From positions 1-25,808 of the forward strand of contig CAYHTX010000001.1 in NCBI GenBank assembly GCA_964359615.1: 25,808 nt of DNA. The letters run 5' to 3'. The notes beneath the pieces were generated by a model, which was not told the DNA's origin, searched no databases, and saw nothing but the letters and a program-made list of their open reading frames with translations. Source of the DNA: an uncultured Gammaproteobacteria bacterium (GTDB taxonomy: Bacteria > Patescibacteriota > Patescibacteriia > Magasanikbacterales > UBA922). Each line of letters opens with the position of its first letter. Position 1 is the stretch's first letter. The translations under genes and the position numbers were made by a program. Below are positions 11,643 through 19,088 of the stretch, piece after piece.

Positions 11643-12917
11643 TTATTCTAGCGTTAAACTCGTCTGCCGCGGCTGCCCACGACCCTCCCCCTCGCCAAAC
11701 ACTTTAACGACCCCGAAGACTCCATCATACCCCGGCTCGATGACAATGTTCCCCGCTCGCACCCGTTTTACGGCTTCGGCAATCTGGGGCGATGACGCTC
11801 GCGCAATGGCGGCACAATCCGCATGGAGCAGAATAAAAAATTCATTGCCGACGTTTTTTATGAGCGCGTCATAGGCCTCTTTCACTCGCTTCGACTGAAC
11901 GCCACAGCCCAGTGTATCAGAAAGAATTTCCGGCAGCGGCACAAGGCTTTTGTACGGAATTTTCCTTCCGTGGCGCGCCGCATCGCGTGAGCGATCGGCG
12001 AGGTCGTTCACGCGATGCATGACGCCAACGACAAGCGGCTTCTTACACTTCGGGCACATGCCGCCGCGCCGTTTTGTTTCCTCCGGTTCGCAAAAAAATT
12101 TGCAGAGCCGGTGGCCATCGAGATGATATTTTCCCTCTTCTGGATAAAATTCAATCGTATATAAAAATTTTTCTTTATCTCCTTCGCGCAGAATTCGCAT
12201 GATCTCGTCATAGGTGATGTCGCGTTCGTTCGAAAACTGCATCACATTTGCCTCCATCCCAAGCTTCTGCGGACTATGGGCGTCAGAGTTCGAAATGAGC
12301 GTAATCGTGTCGAGGGCTGACCAGCGCCAGTTCATGAGGGGATCGCTCGAGAGACCGGTTTCGATCGCAAAAATATGCGGCGTTAATTCCTCGAAACACT
12401 CTTCCATGGTGTTATAGCCGCCACGCGAGCCAAAAATGCCGAACCAGGGCGTCCAGGCATGCGCCGGGATCATGACCATGCGCGGGTCAGCCTCGAGCAT
12501 GAGTTCCAAAATCTGCTTTGAGGTGAGGCCGAGAATCGGACGACCGTCAGCTCGGATATTGAAACCCCGATCTTCGAGCTCTTTATTGAACTTCGCTGCA
12601 ACCTCGAGTGTCGGCGCAAAGAGCAAGTGATGCACGCGCCTGGTCGCGGCCCCGTGTTTTTTGATCGAGGCGACTTCAGTGCCAATCATAAATCGCGTCG
12701 GACTCGAGCCGTCTCTGAGTTTGTACATGCCTTCATTCTCTGGAACGAGCCACTCAGTCATATGCTCGAACCACTTGGGATGCGTGAAATCCCCGGTGAC
12801 CGCAATCTGAATCCCGCGAATTTCGCAGGTCTTCGCAATGTTCGGCAGCACGAGATCTTTCGAGCACGCCCGAGAATAGCGCGAGTGGATATGGAGGTCG
12901 AGAATTTGTTCGATCAT
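11643..12917 (-). CDS. Endonuclease Q family protein (PHP domain + Zn finger)
   Basis: Start at ATG 12917 (MIEQILDLHIHSRYSRACSK). Motifs TGDFTHP, IPAHAWTPWF, ETGLSSDP, SNSDAHS, GKYHLDGHRLC...CPKC, PGYDGVFG. Confidence 0.85.
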   Translation of the reverse strand: MIEQILDLHIHSRYSRACSKDLVLPNIAKTCEIRGIQIAVTGDFTHPKWFEHMTEWLVPENEGMYKLRDGSSPTRFMIGTEVASIKKHGAATRRVHHLLFAPTLEVAAKFNKELEDRGFNIRADGRPILGLTSKQILELMLEADPRMVMIPAHAWTPWFGIFGSRGGYNTMEECFEELTPHIFAIETGLSSDPLMNWRWSALDTITLISNSDAHSPQKLGMEANVMQFSNERDITYDEIMRILREGDKEKFLYTIEFYPEEGKYHLDGHRLCKFFCEPEETKRRGGMCPKCKKPLVVGVMHRVNDLADRSRDAARHGRKIPYKSLVPLPEILSDTLGCGVQSKRVKEAYDALIKNVGNEFFILLHADCAAIARASSPQIAEAVKRVRAGNIVIEPGYDGVFGVVKVFGEGEGRGQPRQTSLTLE

Positions 12918-12942
12918 ATAGTGGTTCACGGGTGTAGAGAGT

Positions 12943-12971
12943 AGTATCTCACTCTCCATCCGCCTTGACAA
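12943..12971 (-). promoter_or_regulatory. Putative promoter of the EndoQ gene
   Basis: Minus strand TTGTCA (12971-12966), 17-nt spacer, GATACT (12948-12943), preceded by TG (extended -10). Confidence 0.5.
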
Positions 12972-12993
12972 TCCTGACGAACCTGCGTACTAT
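12965..12993 (+). promoter_or_regulatory. Near-consensus sigma70 promoter pointing into a region with no long ORF
   Basis: TTGACA (12965-12970), 17-nt spacer, TACTAT (12988-12993). Confidence 0.75.
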
Positions 12994-12999
12994 CAACTA

Positions 13000-13394
13000 C
13001 CGATGCTTATCACCGCATGCCTCCTGAAGCCGCTTCGTGAGACATGCCGTGAGGAAGCGACTGTTCGTGCGCTGAGTCGCGGCACTCCCTACGGGGAGGA
13101 CTGAAAAACTGAATAGCCCACACGTCGGCCTGCAAGGGGCAGGCGGACATACACGTCATGTGTTTCTCAGAATCGCGTCGGTGTGACGCGCGGACGGCAA
13201 CCCATTGAACCAGTAATTGCCGTTCGTTAGATTATATGTGGTCAGCGGTCAGGTCCCGAGACCACAAAAGGATCACTGGTTCCGCCTGCCCTAGACAGAT
13301 CTGGATGCCAGACTGGAGAGAGCAAACGACACAAGGGGACAGGGGGCTGGGGAGCAGAGCATCGCTCCCCGCCCCGCCCAACTTACCAGACTTC
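13000..13394 (+). ncRNA. Putative structured non-coding RNA of unrecognised family (~400 nt)
   Basis: Bounded by its own promoter and terminator. Multiple helices, including a perfect 11-bp long-range pair (13137-13147/13281-13291) and a loop pseudoknot (13207-13214/13275-13282). No convincing long ORF. Confidence 0.55.
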
Positions 13395-13430
13395 AAAAGA
13401 GCCCTACAAGATTATTGTGGGGCTCTTTTT
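13395..13430. terminator. Bidirectional intrinsic terminator
   Basis: AAAAGAGCCCTACAA-GATTA-TTGTGGGGCTCTTTT(T): 15-bp stem with A- and T-tracts on both sides. Confidence 0.9.
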
Positions 13431-13452
13431 CCTATAACACTTTCTCACGGCA

Positions 13453-16400
13453 TCACCTGGCATTTTTCAGGACGTATGTCTTCAATGTTTCTGCCGTGTT
13501 ATAGTCGCGATAATTCACCCCATTCGTGTGATACGGTAACTCCGCACCCGAGAATAACACGTCCACCTTCCCATCACTGTTGAAATCCGCCATCGCCACC
13601 CCGCCTTCGGCCACATATTTCGGCCGGCCGGAAAGAAAGCCGAGGCCGCTCGGGAGCGAACCGCTAAAACTCGCGAGATATTCGCTCGGGTGGACTGCCG
13701 TAAAAGTGCGATTGCCATTATTCACGAAGATCACATCTTCATAGACATACGGATTATCCGTCACGGTGTAATCTCGATGATGGCCTTGTACAAACACTTC
13801 CGGATAGCCGTCGCCGGTCAAATCCCCGACCGCGATGCTCGGCCAATCGAGGTTGCCCGGCCCGCCGTTCGTCGTCCCATCCGGATCCTGCGGCCCGGTG
13901 TTCTCCCAGATCTCAAAATTTTTACCAGTCCCGTTCACGTTAAATAGGACCGCAAAATCATAGTGTTGGCCATTTTTTCCAGGTTCCCCGCTTTGTCCGG
14001 TCGAGGAGCCGGCAATAATCACGTCATTCTTACCGTCGCGGTCAAGGTCCGCAATCGCCATCTGGGCGTTGTCCATCCCGTGACAAGAATTGATGTCCGT
14101 ACGCACTGATTCTGAAACTTTGAGGCCATAGGCAGAAATGACCGAGAGCGCCGGTGGAGCAAACCCGCTACTCCCACCCAAATTCGCATGCGTCTGTCCA
14201 TACATGAGACGTTCACCGCTTGTGATCGTTGCGCCACTGCCACAACTATGAGAACCAAACAAGATGTTCGAGTTGCCGCCAACTGCAATCTCCGGATAAC
14301 CGTCGCCGGTCAAATCCCCTGCGGCAATCGTGCCGCCGTAAGTGATGCGGTGCGAGAAATCACGCTGATGTGCGTCCCAAAGATTTGTGCTCGTGTTCCA
14401 GGCATACCACAGTCCACCGTTTTCACCGCCATCAGAATTGAACACCAGGTCATCCCGACCATCACGATTCACATCCGCCGCCGCGAGCCCGAGCGAGGTG
14501 CTGTTATTTGCGAAGTCGAGTTCGTATTTCGTGAAATTCCAGCTGCCATTATTCATGAAGCTCGCAATATTGCCACCGTTCCGCATCTCGACGGCAAAAT
14601 CTTTTCGTCCGTCTCCATTGAAGTCGCCCACAGCGAGCGTCGCCCCGCGGTTGCCGTTTTCGTTCGAGAGGGTTTGCTGTAGTTCAAAACGGATCGCGCC
14701 GCTCAGCGACGAGACATTGCGATAGAGCCGCAGTTCCTCGCTCCCGCCCCCGGGGTTATCTGAAGAATGATACATGGTCCGAAAGTGTCCGATCGCGACC
14801 ACATCCGTGTCCCCATCGCCGTCAAAATCGGCTGTGCCAAAAGAGCCGCCGTACATGCCGGGGATGCCGTGATTATCTTCGCGCGTGAGCGTGAGCGTAG
14901 TATTCGGTGCTGTGACCGGGGTTGCTGCTGGCGGGGCAGTCACAGGTGCCTCAGGCGGAGCGGGAGCGGGAGTCGGTTCGACGACCGGCGTCACAACACC
15001 GCCGACCTGATACGCACCGATGTCATAGCTCTTTCCAACCCGGCTGACGCCATCTTTATCTGCGACTACGGTAGTGAGCGTTTCCCCTTTTCCAACCGCC
15101 GCCGTGTAGAGAGCCGTACCTGTCTTCGGCTTCAAATTGCGTGCCACGACACTTTCAAAATCATTGGTGCTGTAGGTGCTCCCGAGGATAATATTTGACC
15201 CTCCGGTATGCGTTCCGCCCGAACGATCGAGAATTTGTTTATCAAGAATGTTATTCCGGACATCGGCGGTTGAGCCACTGTAACGCACGTCAATCGAAGA
15301 ATTTCCGCCGCCGGTGTAGGAGTTGATAAACGTGTTATTGTAGACCTGGGTATCATTCCCGTTTTCGAGATAGAGCGCTACGTCTTTCGTGTTCAGGCTG
15401 ACGTTGTTGCGTACAACGCCATCCCGGTGTTCATAGGTCGTATTCTGATCGCGGAACCACTGGGCGCCGGTCGTGCCGCCGATCGAGATCGAGACATCAT
15501 TGTCGTAGAACAGATTATTTTCGACAATCGTATCCTGGCTATTCCCTTTCATGAGAATCCCCCAGGCCACGCCGCTGTCTTTCTTCACCCCATGAATCAC
15601 ATTACTCCGAATGATCCACCCTTTGACGCCAATGCCATCGATGCCTTCGGCCACGCTATAATTCGTCGGTTCGCGAAAAAAGATCTCCGTATTTTCTATG
15701 AGGAGCTTGTCCGGATACGGCGCAGCGCCGGCGCCCGACCCTTTGACCCCGCCCTCAGCGCCGCGGTAGACTTCCATTTTTCCGCCACGGATCACGACGT
15801 CGTGGCCATCGGTGTCGAGCTTGTAGGCGTGATAGGCGCCGCTGCCATTTACTTTCACATGCAGATTTTCAAAAATATAGTAAGGGTGCTGGATATGAAA
15901 GGCTTCCTCAGCGCCGTTCGTTTCAATGATTGCGCCGTTTTCATTTTGTGCGCGAACGGTAATCGGTGCGCCCTGCCTACCGCCGCGCTGGGTCGTGATG
16001 CGAGTTCCAGAAAAATTGTACGTGCCGTCAGAGAGCGTGATGGTATCCCCTGGTACCGCCTTGCCGACCGCATCACGCAGAGCGGAAACCGTTGATACGA
16101 GCGTGCCGACCACGGCTGGCGGAGTCGCCGCGATCGGAACATCTGGGATATTCGTACTGGCTGAAATGGTTGGCAGCCGATCGACCCGATACAGCGCGGC
16201 CAACTCGTCATAGGAAGAAATGTACTGCCGCTCGACTTGTCCGTTCGCAGTGCGAACAACTTTATACACTTCCGGAGAATTTTGATATGTATACGCCATG
16301 CCCGCTGGGTAGTCTGCCTGCGATCGAATCGTCGCCTGTACTGTGTACCGAGCAATCACATCACTCGTCACGTCTTCGATCCACCGCCACTCTAATTCCA

Positions 16401-16824
16401 AATTGTGAAACACCGTTTCGTTGTCGATCGGATAAAGGGAATGACTAACGAGGAGATAGACTGAAGGATTATCAACTGTCTTCACGAGCGAGCCATTCCC
16501 GAATTCGCGCCGCGGACCCCACGGCAAAAACCAAAGTTCGTGATCTGGAATGCTTTCGAGTGTACTTTCGGTCGTTAAATGGATGTCGCTCCAGGATGAA
16601 AAATGAGAAAAAAAGACGGCTGGACTCTTCATCGGACGTTTTTTACAATCCGACGATACATAGTAAACTGCCGGCGAGGCCGATGACTTATACGGATACC
16701 CGACCTCGAGTGGACAATCCCCTGCGGCAACCGGCATCCGTGAGAGAACGAGCGGCGGAAAACTAAAAAGCGCTATCAGAATACTCACTCCAATGCGCTG
16801 AACCAACGGACGAAAGTTTGACAT
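13453..16824 (-). CDS. Large secreted/surface protein: N-terminal repeat domain, right-handed beta-helix (pectate-lyase-like), P/T/A linker, FG-GAP/VCBS repeats
   Basis: Start at ATG 16824 with a signal-peptide-like N-terminus. 'SALRDAVGKAVPGDTITLSDGTY' beta-helix cap, Asn/Gly ladders, 'DIGAY' end motif, linker VTPVVEPTPAPAPPEAPVTAPPAATP, and seven DxxxDGxxD loops. Confidence 0.85.
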   Translation of the reverse strand: MSNFRPLVQRIGVSILIALFSFPPLVLSRMPVAAGDCPLEVGYPYKSSASPAVYYVSSDCKKRPMKSPAVFFSHFSSWSDIHLTTESTLESIPDHELWFLPWGPRREFGNGSLVKTVDNPSVYLLVSHSLYPIDNETVFHNLELEWRWIEDVTSDVIARYTVQATIRSQADYPAGMAYTYQNSPEVYKVVRTANGQVERQYISSYDELAALYRVDRLPTISASTNIPDVPIAATPPAVVGTLVSTVSALRDAVGKAVPGDTITLSDGTYNFSGTRITTQRGGRQGAPITVRAQNENGAIIETNGAEEAFHIQHPYYIFENLHVKVNGSGAYHAYKLDTDGHDVVIRGGKMEVYRGAEGGVKGSGAGAAPYPDKLLIENTEIFFREPTNYSVAEGIDGIGVKGWIIRSNVIHGVKKDSGVAWGILMKGNSQDTIVENNLFYDNDVSISIGGTTGAQWFRDQNTTYEHRDGVVRNNVSLNTKDVALYLENGNDTQVYNNTFINSYTGGGNSSIDVRYSGSTADVRNNILDKQILDRSGGTHTGGSNIILGSTYSTNDFESVVARNLKPKTGTALYTAAVGKGETLTTVVADKDGVSRVGKSYDIGAYQVGGVVTPVVEPTPAPAPPEAPVTAPPAATPVTAPNTTLTLTREDNHGIPGMYGGSFGTADFDGDGDTDVVAIGHFRTMYHSSDNPGGGSEELRLYRNVSSLSGAIRFELQQTLSNENGNRGATLAVGDFNGDGRKDFAVEMRNGGNIASFMNNGSWNFTKYELDFANNSTSLGLAAADVNRDGRDDLVFNSDGGENGGLWYAWNTSTNLWDAHQRDFSHRITYGGTIAAGDLTGDGYPEIAVGGNSNILFGSHSCGSGATITSGERLMYGQTHANLGGSSGFAPPALSVISAYGLKVSESVRTDINSCHGMDNAQMAIADLDRDGKNDVIIAGSSTGQSGEPGKNGQHYDFAVLFNVNGTGKNFEIWENTGPQDPDGTTNGGPGNLDWPSIAVGDLTGDGYPEVFVQGHHRDYTVTDNPYVYEDVIFVNNGNRTFTAVHPSEYLASFSGSLPSGLGFLSGRPKYVAEGGVAMADFNSDGKVDVLFSGAELPYHTNGVNYRDYNTAETLKTYVLKNAR

Positions 16825-16844
16825 AGACGACTGATGCTCCACTC

Positions 16845-17414
16845 TCAAAATCCGTAATCAACCGGGCCATACCCGGGCACGCTCACATACCCCTGGCTGT
16901 TATCTGCATTGTAATTCCCTGCTCCGAAATTGCCTTCTGACCAGAAGTTATCGCCGCTCGTACCTCCGCCGGCCGGCGCGCTGCCTCCACCATACAGGTT
17001 GCCGAGCGGCGCTGGTTTTCCTTCCGTGCCATAGTTGCCATACGCATCCAGCCAGTATGATCCTGGACGAATGACTCCGAGAGACTGTTCAAGAAGCGTG
17101 AGCTCGCTTGGGGTGATTTCCCTACCGTTCACGAAAACAGCCGTGTTTCCAGGCGACACATTGTCCGGAATCTCGCCACCATCGTTTCCAGCCTCAGGCT
17201 CCGATGTTGCCTGTCCGTCTGAAATAGATGATCCGCTGGTGATATCGCTCGAATCCTCAGATGCAGATGGCTCTCCCGACTCAGTAAGACCAGACGGCAT
17301 TGCCAGTTCGGTCACTCCCGGCGATTTGAGAGCGAGGTTGGAACGGACGGCGAGACCGGCAGTGCCCCCGACCAGAAGGATCGCGACGATGCTCAAAAGA
17401 ATTTTTATATTCAT
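16845..17414 (-). CDS. Hypothetical membrane-anchored/secreted protein with acidic S/G linker
   Basis: Start at ATG 17414 (MNIKILLSIVAILLVGG). Low-complexity S/D/E/G linker, then 'VFVNGREITPSEL...PGSYWLDAYGNYGTEG' domain and a G/N/Y-rich tail. Confidence 0.75.
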   Translation of the reverse strand: MNIKILLSIVAILLVGGTAGLAVRSNLALKSPGVTELAMPSGLTESGEPSASEDSSDITSGSSISDGQATSEPEAGNDGGEIPDNVSPGNTAVFVNGREITPSELTLLEQSLGVIRPGSYWLDAYGNYGTEGKPAPLGNLYGGGSAPAGGGTSGDNFWSEGNFGAGNYNADNSQGYVSVPGYGPVDYGF

Positions 17415-17434
17415 ACGGATTTTGCGCAAAAAAT

Positions 17435-18175
17435 TTACAGTGTTTTATTTGCCTCTCCTACATATTCTATATCATCTTCCGACAACCGGCGCAACCCGGC
17501 GTCGCCGGTCATCTCTTCATACACCTGTGCCACGAGTCCCGGAACGCGTGCAATGATAAATACGCCTTTCATCACATCCCACGGAAAGCCCATGTCTGAA
17601 AGAATAGCCGCCATCGCGCCGTCAATATTGAGCGGCAGTTTCTTTGACGAAATCGCGTTCAAACTCTTACCGACCGCCTCGGCTGAGGCACAATGCTTGC
17701 CATAAAACCCGAGCTCCCGCGCCACTGCGAGGAGCTGACTCGCGCGGTGATCGTCAGCGAGGATTGCGTGGCCGTAGCCTGCCAGACGGATTTTTTGTTC
17801 CTTCATTTTTTTGATCAGGCTATCAATGTCGGCATCGTCGGCATGCTCTTGGAAAAATTTCGCGGCTCCCTCAATGGCGCTCCCGTGCCGCTCGCCCATG
17901 GCGAGAATGCCGGCAGCGACGGCCGTATGCAGGCTGTTCTTCGCCGACGCGACGATTCTCGCTGTCAAAGCTGATACCGTGCCCGGGCCGTGATCAATGG
18001 CGGCAGTCAAAATGGCGTTGAACATTTTCGCCTCCGTTTCGTTTGGGAGTTCGCCTCTCAAAATCAAATAAATCGCTTCGGCAAATGATTTCTGTTGCAT
18101 GAGATCTTTCATGGCATACCCTCGGATCACTTCTTCGCCGCGGTTGAGGTTGGTAATACTCGTTTTAAATTTCAT
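17435..18175 (-). CDS. Citryl-CoA lyase (citrate-synthase-like domain)
   Basis: Start MKFKTSIT at 18175 (or 18181). 'IDHGPGTVSA...VAAGILAMGERHGSAIE...GYGH...LNIDGAMAA...SDMGF...ARVPGLVA'. Confidence 0.88.
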   Translation of the reverse strand: MKFKTSITNLNRGEEVIRGYAMKDLMQQKSFAEAIYLILRGELPNETEAKMFNAILTAAIDHGPGTVSALTARIVASAKNSLHTAVAAGILAMGERHGSAIEGAAKFFQEHADDADIDSLIKKMKEQKIRLAGYGHAILADDHRASQLLAVARELGFYGKHCASAEAVGKSLNAISSKKLPLNIDGAMAAILSDMGFPWDVMKGVFIIARVPGLVAQVYEEMTGDAGLRRLSEDDIEYVGEANKTL

Positions 18176-18197
18176 ACGCATAGAAAAAAATACGCAA

Positions 18198-19088
18198 TTA
18201 TACCAATGGCTTGACAAGCTCAACCAAATCTTCGTATCGGTCCGCAATCATGACGCCCGCGGCTCTGAGCGCTGCTTCTTTTTCTTTCGCTCCCTTGCCG
18301 CGCTCGACGATCGCACCGGCATGGCCGATGTTCATCCCCTCAGGTAATATGCTCGTGAATTTACCACCAACATATACTGCAAGCGGTTTGGTGTATTCTT
18401 TCCTTTCAATCATCTCAACAATTTCAAATTCGTAGCTACCGCCATGCTCACCAAAAATTACTACTACTTTTGTTTGTTCATCTTTTTCAAACAAACGGAG
18501 AAGATCGGCGTACGTCATTCCCATAAGGAGATCCCCGCCGACATGCACCGCCGTGCTCTGACCTAACCCGGCCTTCCGAATCTGCCACGAGATCTCGTTC
18601 GTCATGCCGCCCGAGCGGGAAATGATGCCGATACTTCCCGGTTGAAAGATTTCATTGACGAGCGGGCCGCCAACCACGCCCACTCGGCCAATGCCTGGCG
18701 CAATATACCCGAGCGAACTGGGACCAATAATTTGAATATTTTTTTCTTTAGCTGCCGCCAGACAATACCCAGTATCTTGAATCGGGATGCGCTCCACGAT
18801 GACATTGATTTGCGGAATATCATGATCAATCGCTTCGAGGATCGCGGCTTTGGCGGCAAATGGCGGGACATAAATGGCACTCGTCGTAATATCCGTAAAC
18901 TGTGCTTTCGCTTCGGCAACCGAGTTAAAAACCGGCTTGCCTTCCACCTCTTGCCCGCCTTTTTTTGGCGTGACACCACACATAACCTTGGTACCGTAAT
19001 CAAGCATGGCTTTCGCAGCTTTGGCGCCTTCTTTGCCGGTCATGCCTTGGACAAACACTTTTGTTTGAGGGGTGATGAGAATGCTCAT
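18198..19088 (-). CDS. SucD-like CoA-binding alpha subunit (citryl-CoA synthetase small subunit / AclA N-terminal part)
   Basis: 'VQGMTGKEG', 'GVTPKKGG', 'ISRSGGMTNE', 'FGEHGG' and phospho-His motif 'GHAGA'. Confidence 0.85.
   Translation of the reverse strand: MSILITPQTKVFVQGMTGKEGAKAAKAMLDYGTKVMCGVTPKKGGQEVEGKPVFNSVAEAKAQFTDITTSAIYVPPFAAKAAILEAIDHDIPQINVIVERIPIQDTGYCLAAAKEKNIQIIGPSSLGYIAPGIGRVGVVGGPLVNEIFQPGSIGIISRSGGMTNEISWQIRKAGLGQSTAVHVGGDLLMGMTYADLLRLFEKDEQTKVVVIFGEHGGSYEFEIVEMIERKEYTKPLAVYVGGKFTSILPEGMNIGHAGAIVERGKGAKEKEAALRAAGVMIADRYEDLVELVKPLV

Follow-up and report, generated by a model that had tools for sequence, protein, structure and literature searches.

A candidate lineage-restricted structured RNA gene next to an EndoQ-like gene in a Magasanikbacteria genome

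A 535-nt gap without genes (positions 12918–13452) was identified in a 25,808-nt stretch of DNA (the window) from the genome of a Magasanikbacteria bacterium (Patescibacteria/CPR). This gap is best read as a stand-alone gene for a structured RNA on the plus strand, young and restricted to one lineage, the product of which would act in trans; we put the probability of this reading at about 0.45. The gap is flanked by two minus-strand genes. The left flank is an EndoQ-like (endonuclease-Q-like) PHP gene (ORF 11643–12971, with a conserved start ATG at 12917), and the right flank encodes an FG-GAP/beta-helix surface protein of 1131 aa (13453–16848, stop codon at 13453) that is convergent with the candidate. 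The host assembly of 1.1 Mb in 159 contigs is 89.8% complete and contains a single copy of the candidate RNA region. The proteins it encodes have their closest counterparts in Candidatus Magasanikbacteria. The GC content of the gap (0.56) ranks seventh of 92 long gaps, which have a mean of 0.48. The gap sequence is also present in groundwater metagenomes, and the sequencing runs that contain it are DNA runs only. Contigs from four runs in three studies covered the promoter, 5' domain, core and terminator junctions with 0 differences. These identical contigs indicate that the gap DNA is real, but they supply no variation for covariation analysis.

Promoter, terminator and coding potential

The initial annotation described a consensus-like promoter firing into a region that lacks a credible long ORF and ends at a strong terminator, and all three elements were recovered. 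A sigma-70-type promoter (TTGACA-N17-TACTAT) is located on the plus strand at 12965–12993, with a predicted start near 12999–13003. It matches the consensus at 10 of 12 positions and fits the TTGACA-N17-TAxAxT pattern of the genome's own promoters, among which matches of at least 10/12 are TTGACA-N17-TATACT-like nearly throughout. Such matches number 0.55 per kb in long gaps, against 0.15 per kb over the genome as a whole and 0.07 per kb after block shuffling, an ~8-fold difference between gaps and shuffled sequence.

The divergent EndoQ promoter (TTGTCA-N17-GATACT, TG-extended) is located on the minus strand at 12943–12971, outside the candidate RNA. The plus-strand −35 element (TTGACAA) is the reverse complement of the conserved, near-palindromic EndoQ −35 element (TTGTCAA). 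Thus, the plus-strand −35 element comes free from that of EndoQ and only the −10 hexamer had to arise; by our own estimate the chance of such a −10 hexamer arising is ~0.05. The sister lineage described below lacks a corresponding plus-strand −10 hexamer and has a TTGTCA-N17-TATCGT promoter at the same place upstream of its EndoQ gene (10230–10272 of contig L170). In these two lineages the EndoQ-like gene has retained a TTGTCA-N17 promoter of its own with a terminator before it, and its leader is very short, the distance from the −10 element to the ATG being ~9 nt in the sister lineage and 25 nt here.

A bidirectional intrinsic terminator with a 15-bp stem is located at 13395–13429; its U tail is U5 when read on the plus strand and U4 when read on the minus strand. 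This terminator also ends the convergent FG-GAP gene, the stop codon of which is 24 nt away. Its predicted stability is −23.2 kcal/mol on the plus strand (z −6.4) and −18.5 kcal/mol on the minus strand (z −5.7), and the 13405·13419 pair is G·U on the plus strand and a C·A mismatch on the minus strand. No credible ORF was found in 12918–13452, and no frame gave a Pfam match. From the promoter and terminator signals, the fold and the lack of a credible ORF, we predict a plus-strand transcript of ~430 nt extending from 13001 to 13431. A promoter of its own, an intrinsic terminator and no ORF are the generic attributes of a bacterial ncRNA gene, and the candidate has all three.

Predicted fold of the candidate RNA

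The predicted plus-strand RNA begins with a 5' hairpin domain (13005–13058) consisting of four stacked helices (13005–08/13055–58, 13010–13/13049–52, 13015–19/13043–47 and 13025–29/13033–37; pair probabilities 0.92–1.00), which is computed to fold as soon as it is transcribed. A CUCCC-UACG-GGGAG hairpin follows at 13085–13098 (probability 1.00), capped by a UNCG-type tetraloop (cUACGg) that is present on the plus strand only. The central multibranch domain (13136–13292; probabilities 0.81–0.99) is closed by a stem formed by 13136–47 and 13281–92. This stem, GGGCAGGCGGA/TCCGCCTGCCC at 13137–47/13281–91, is 12 bp long when the terminal G·U pair is counted. Enclosed within it are four hairpins (13151–63, 13175–89, 13190–13227 and 13230–74), and the other core helices are ACAC/GTGT, GCGTC/GACGC, GCGGACGGCAA/TTGCCGTTCGT and TGTGGTC/GACCACA. 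A GC-rich hairpin of 12 bp (GGGGC.GGGGAGC/GCUCCCC GCCCC) is found further 3' at 13343–13375 (probabilities 0.97–1.00, z −4.25).

Most of the helices that had previously been read by eye were reproduced in these computations. All of the listed core helices are present with pair probabilities of 0.81–1.00, as are the hairpins at 13085–98 and 13343–75 (0.97–1.00). A pair of mutually exclusive 5' helices had been proposed as well; they exist as sequence at 13031–36/13054–59 and 13057–62/13075–80, but their pair probabilities are ~0.00–0.01. The outcome for the proposed pseudoknot was intermediate. A hairpin loop (13207–13214) is complementary over 8 nt to a junction segment (13275–13282) that overlaps the closing stem by 2 nt, and 13 of 2000 shuffles reached this complementarity for the 13207–14 loop. 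Allowing for about six loops gives p ~0.04, so the candidate pseudoknot is suggestive only. If formed, it would stack coaxially on the closing stem.

The fold is more stable and better defined than those of shuffled sequences. The folding tool returned minimum free energy (MFE) z-scores of −5.5 for the plus strand and −6.0 for the minus strand. In our own shuffles the full 431 nt scored −6.3. The z-score was −4.3 when the terminator was left out, −4.5 for the core of 157 nt and −2.6 for the 5' domain, and every sub-domain was significant on its own. None of 200 shuffles was as stable as the core (13136–13292). On the plus strand the MFE structure is identical to the centroid. The ensemble has a diversity of 0.096 per nt compared to 0.235 ± 0.075 in shuffles, none of 60 being as low, and positional entropy is below that of all 60 shuffles.

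Two further sequence features were observed in this region. A 14-nt inverted repeat (13044–57/13440–53, 13 of 14 positions complementary) encloses the terminator and most of the structured region. The arm on the right adjoins the FG-GAP stop codon, the chance occurrence of such a repeat is estimated at ~0.08 per kb, and only in a read-through transcript could the repeat close the structure. In addition, an anti-Shine-Dalgarno-like CCUCCU (13020–13025) and an SD-like GGAGG (13095–13099) both lie inside helices, each being expected by chance at roughly 0.1–0.4.

Search for relatives of the candidate RNA

The known distribution of the candidate is limited to one lineage. BLASTN identified no homologue in 60 relatives or in 400 genomes of the class, and BLASTN against phages and plasmids likewise returned no relative. 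A covariance model built from the single sequence (R1; 13124–13330, 65 base pairs) found nothing at E≤10 in 106 genomes of the family, 150 of the order and the five nearest genomes. The sole match to the model (23 bits, genome G172) lay inside an ORF and was rejected as spurious. Exact-pattern scans gave 14 chance matches in genome contigs and 61 in viral contigs; these fell in GC-rich taxa and viral contigs, and none was confirmed by R1. An exact scan with a 20-mer gave no match. As a positive control, the RNase P RNA of the host was used as a BLASTN query and gave a match in all 24 of the 24 family genomes and in 10 of 16 others of the order. Among 5.8 billion proteins, homologues of the EndoQ protein reach at most 72% identity, indicating that public data contain no close or genus-level relative of the host lineage. 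As no homologue of the candidate is available, there is no covariation and no sign of selection.

Synteny and age of the structured segment

Of the 106 family genomes, 95 carry the EndoQ gene. In 29 relatives it lies 0–147 nt from its upstream neighbour, the neighbours being variable, and no comparable gap is found. The neighbour is a citryl-CoA-lyase-like gene (CCL) in 5 of these 29; here CCL is located at 17435–18247, 4.5 kb from the EndoQ gene. The nearest syntenic lineage (G095/L066) is of the same species as NCBI contig L170. Its order is CCL, a 264-aa gene, an FG-GAP orthologue (64% identity), a 1015-aa gene encoding an fn3/Big_7 surface protein, a terminator, the TTGTCA-N17-TATCGT promoter and EndoQ. 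The order in the window is CCL, a 194-aa gene with 58% identity to the C-terminal part of the 264-aa gene, FG-GAP, a terminator, ~390 nt of structured sequence, the TTGTCA-N17-GATACT promoter and EndoQ. The structured segment therefore occupies the exact slot of the sister lineage's 3-kb gene (1015 aa). We conclude from this position that the segment is evolutionarily young. Since the EndoQ promoter is conserved in both lineages, the gap is not required as an EndoQ leader.

Searches with tblastn and tblastx revealed no similarity of the structured segment to the 1015-aa gene or to other genes. A gene remnant was considered and rejected; with the neighbouring and replacing genes as queries these searches gave matches at E≥0.025 only, Pfam gave none, and any remnant is undetectable.

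The content of the slot between CCL and EndoQ (12918–17434 here, compared with L170 and L017–L045) varies within the family. Some genera have nothing there, others have one or two genes for large surface proteins, and the slot appears to be a hot spot for the gain and loss of surface-protein cassettes.

Structured gaps elsewhere in the genome

About 25 of the 92 ORF-free gaps of at least 250 nt have z-scores of −4.5 or lower, and the candidate gap is approximately 14th among them. When MFEs of 200-nt windows across the genome were regressed on dinucleotide content, the candidate's windows ranked 54–619 of 10,789, similar to those of RNase P RNA (4 and 100–151). The structure of the gap is thus less special than it first appears and is not unique in the genome.

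The 20 most structured other gaps contain one Rfam match above gathering score, an AdoCbl riboswitch at C24:3149–3304. Other structured gaps include C59:4685–5031, C143:645–956, C92:2713–3055, C37:8238–8512, C20:8772–9167, C42:4395–4732, C52:4254–4573 and C19:8390–8876. Many gaps of this structured set have a TTGACA-N17-TATACT promoter, and the set supplies candidates for further RNAs of no known family or for leaders. Two families of short palindromic repeats (24–50 nt) with a REP-like look are common to several intergenic gaps. The first occurs in C23:721–1054, C92:2713–3055 and C5:15051–15549, and the second in C24:7882–8136, C59:4685–5031, C71:3585–4015, C127:2401–2673, C20:10323–10812 and C53:1251–1864. 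These shared repeats partly account for how highly those gaps score for structure. Unlike several other structured gaps, the candidate gap has no repeat in common with any other gap. A REP- or MITE-like element was also rejected, as the candidate is present in single copy and its inverted repeat has neither other copies nor a flanking duplication.

These comparisons bear on the main rival explanation, which is that the segment is a non-functional spacer, either a leftover or a recent acquisition, in a slot prone to recombination that separates the surface-protein cassette from EndoQ. Its promoter would then be a by-product of the palindromic EndoQ −35 element, its terminator would belong to FG-GAP, its helices would have no function, and there may be spurious transcription or none. 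The variable neighbours at 0–147 nt in the relatives, the 1015-aa gene exactly at this place in the sister lineage, the similar z-scores of many gaps in the genome and the lack of a homologue in ~650 relatives, compared to 24 of 24 for the RNase P RNA control, are all consistent with a spacer. However, a z-score of about −6, significance of all of the sub-domains and a well-defined ensemble would be unexpected from decaying or random DNA, and perfect helices of 11–12 bp should erode if neutral. The lack of similarity to the 1015-aa gene or any other gene, together with the lack of a shared repeat family, also argues against it. On balance we regard a spacer as unlikely, although it is the strongest competitor of the RNA gene.

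In weighing an RNA gene we counted in its favour the promoter, the plus-favouring terminator, the well-defined fold, the lack of an ORF or Pfam match, the high GC content, the lack of a shared repeat, the reality of the DNA and the fact that EndoQ has its own promoter. Counted against it were the missing homologues, the −35 element that comes free from EndoQ, the terminator that FG-GAP needs anyway, the ~25 of 92 gaps that are equally structured and a minus strand that folds equally well.

Strand of the putative transcript

Among the readings that involve transcription, the plus strand is favoured by about 4:1, the strand being called from the signals only. The plus strand has the better promoter and terminator, the cUACGg tetraloop and an MFE structure identical to the centroid, and two G·U pairs lengthen the 13190–13200/13217–13227 helix. 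On the other side, the 13207–17/13272–82 pairing reaches 11 bp on the minus strand by way of one G·U pair, and the total energy of that strand is slightly lower. The evidence from G·U pairs is therefore mixed and not decisive.

A minus-strand RNA would be a structured spacer or long leader within a transcript reading through from FG-GAP into EndoQ, for example a processing or stability element. Such a role would fit the equally good fold of this strand (z −6.0 to −6.2), the 11-bp pairing that is available only there and the inverted repeat that brackets the region including the terminator. Because the terminator on this strand carries a mismatch and only a U4 tail, read-through is plausible. 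However, the EndoQ promoter lies directly upstream of its gene and is conserved in the sister lineage, and the gap contains no minus-strand promoter. The minus-strand MFE and centroid structures differ by 27 pairs, its helices contain more G·U pairs, and it has no match to a riboswitch or leader family. A minus-strand RNA seems improbable.

The plus-strand transcript could also be a sensor leader, with the terminator deciding on antisense read-through into the FG-GAP gene. Riboswitch- and leader-controlled antisense RNAs include the B12 riboswitch/AspocR of Listeria and the S-box antisense RNA of the ubiG operon of Clostridium. The candidate resembles these in having a structured 5' region followed by an intrinsic terminator that faces the 3' end of a convergent gene, here 24 nt from the FG-GAP stop codon. 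By our own reading the 3' strand of the closing stem (13288–93) can pair with the 3' arm of the terminator, and the inverted repeat could form only in a read-through transcript. The candidate differs from the known examples in that it has no recognisable aptamer, a candidate antiterminator of only 6 bp and no sign of read-through. In addition, its terminator is very strong (−23 kcal/mol), and no homologue supports such a role. We consider an antisense leader more improbable still.

A cis-acting riboswitch or leader was rejected, in agreement with the initial annotation. There is no plus-strand gene downstream and no aptamer match in Rfam, and EndoQ on the minus strand has its own conserved promoter.

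It is highly improbable that the transcript is a leaderless mRNA for a 33-aa peptide (13003–13104) with a long structured 3' UTR. The ATG at 13003 lies 10 nt past the −10 hexamer, but this spacing is long for a leaderless start and the ORF lies inside stable helices. Moreover, the peptide has no recognisable feature and no Pfam match, and ORFs of similar length are expected to arise by chance.

Comparison with known RNA families

A search of the whole window against Rfam 15, including the models for group I and group II introns, OLE, ROOL, GOLLD, HEARO and raiA, gave 0 matches at gathering score. At E≤10 the only matches in 12800–13600 were chance ones to miRNA and sX13 families (E 1.9–6.3), located on the GC hairpin. 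The Rfam comparison proposed in the initial annotation thus matched no family, and its impression that the region resembles neither tmRNA, RNase P, SRP or 6S RNA nor group I/II introns holds even at E≤10. The RNase P RNA model (RF00010) had no match in the region and identified a canonical copy at C10:1786–2269 (148 bits). ARAGORN found no tmRNA in the window, nor did Rfam (RF00023), and the canonical copy is at C20:140–532 (107 bits). Since both RNAs are encoded at other loci, the candidate is neither of them. 6S RNA (RF00013) is a rod of ~185 nt with a central bubble; it gave no match, and the candidate is multibranched rather than rod-like. A CsrB-like sponge was rejected because 10 GGA motifs compared to ~7 expected do not constitute an enrichment.

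The check for housekeeping RNAs elsewhere in the genome was thus positive for RNase P RNA and tmRNA and negative for SRP RNA. The SRP RNA models (RF00169 and RF01854) gave no match at E≤10, and the genome lacks Ffh and FtsY. The candidate does contain a 10-mer, GGUCAGGUCC, that is common to SRP RNA, but its structural context differs. Neither SRP RNA nor 6S RNA was found anywhere in the genome. The genome is also without the SRP proteins, so an SRP RNA would not be expected there.

A highly diverged RNase P, tmRNA, SRP or 6S RNA, or group I/II intron, is effectively refuted: the genome does lack a recognisable SRP RNA and 6S RNA, but even at E≤10 no model matched, RNase P RNA and tmRNA have loci of their own, SRP RNA is not expected without its proteins, and the candidate, unlike a housekeeping RNA, is not conserved in relatives, being absent from 106 family genomes. 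This part of the original interpretation was abandoned, and its suggestion of a ribozyme found no support. What stood of the interpretation was the lack of an Rfam match and of an ORF, the promoter, the plus-favouring terminator and the stable fold.

As a separate observation, the whole SRP pathway is seemingly absent from the host genome and from ~40 relatives of the same order. The host genome yielded neither an SRP RNA (RF00169, RF01854) nor an Ffh M domain (PF02978). The SRP54-type GTPase domain of Ffh/FtsY (PF00448) was absent as well, and a six-frame motif search found no GxxGxGKT[TS]...DTAGR protein in it. RF00169 and PF02978 gave nothing in 30 relatives, and PF00448 gave only partial P-loop matches of at most 23 bits in 40 relatives, 34 of which are of high quality. 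Controls for these searches were positive in 12–14 of 14 reference genomes. A literature search identified no paper that evidently reports SRP loss in this order. The absence could reflect a real loss in this Magasanikbacteria-like order or extreme divergence.

The candidate is comparable to OLE, ROOL, GOLLD, raiA motif RNA and HEARO in that it is several hundred nt long, multi-domain and ORF-free, and forms a stand-alone unit, located in a long and GC-rich intergenic region, that has a promoter and a terminator of its own. It has no sequence or structure match to them at E≤10 and no associated conserved protein gene. Moreover, those RNAs are defined by covariation across many genomes, whereas the candidate is known from one lineage.

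Proposed mechanism and implications

A stand-alone RNA gene on the plus strand would operate as follows. RNA polymerase would start at the sigma-70-type promoter, the −35 element of which is shared, back to back, with the divergent EndoQ promoter. The ~430-nt non-coding transcript would fold into the 5' hairpin domain, the central four-hairpin domain and the GC clamp hairpin, with the central domain closed by the 12-bp stem and possibly locked by the loop–junction pseudoknot. Transcription would end at the bidirectional terminator common to the convergent surface-protein gene. The product would probably act in trans as a stable folded RNA, e.g. as a protein-binding scaffold or regulatory RNA.

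A more ambitious version of the RNA gene reading is that the candidate founds a new class of large structured RNAs with a tertiary fold, so far known from a single lineage, such as a ribozyme or an RNP subunit. The closing stem could then be coaxial with the pseudoknot, and the RNA could have originated de novo or by capture at the place of a surface-protein gene that was lost. We view this as a long shot.

The candidate alone changes little, and it is chiefly useful as a coordinate to inspect in groundwater metatranscriptomes when these become available. If transcribed and functional, it would be a lineage-restricted structured RNA gene of no catalogued family in an ultra-small CPR bacterium. 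It is unusual that the age of such a segment can be bracketed by means of a protein gene in a sister lineage, and the locus could exemplify how a structured RNA gene was recently born or captured.
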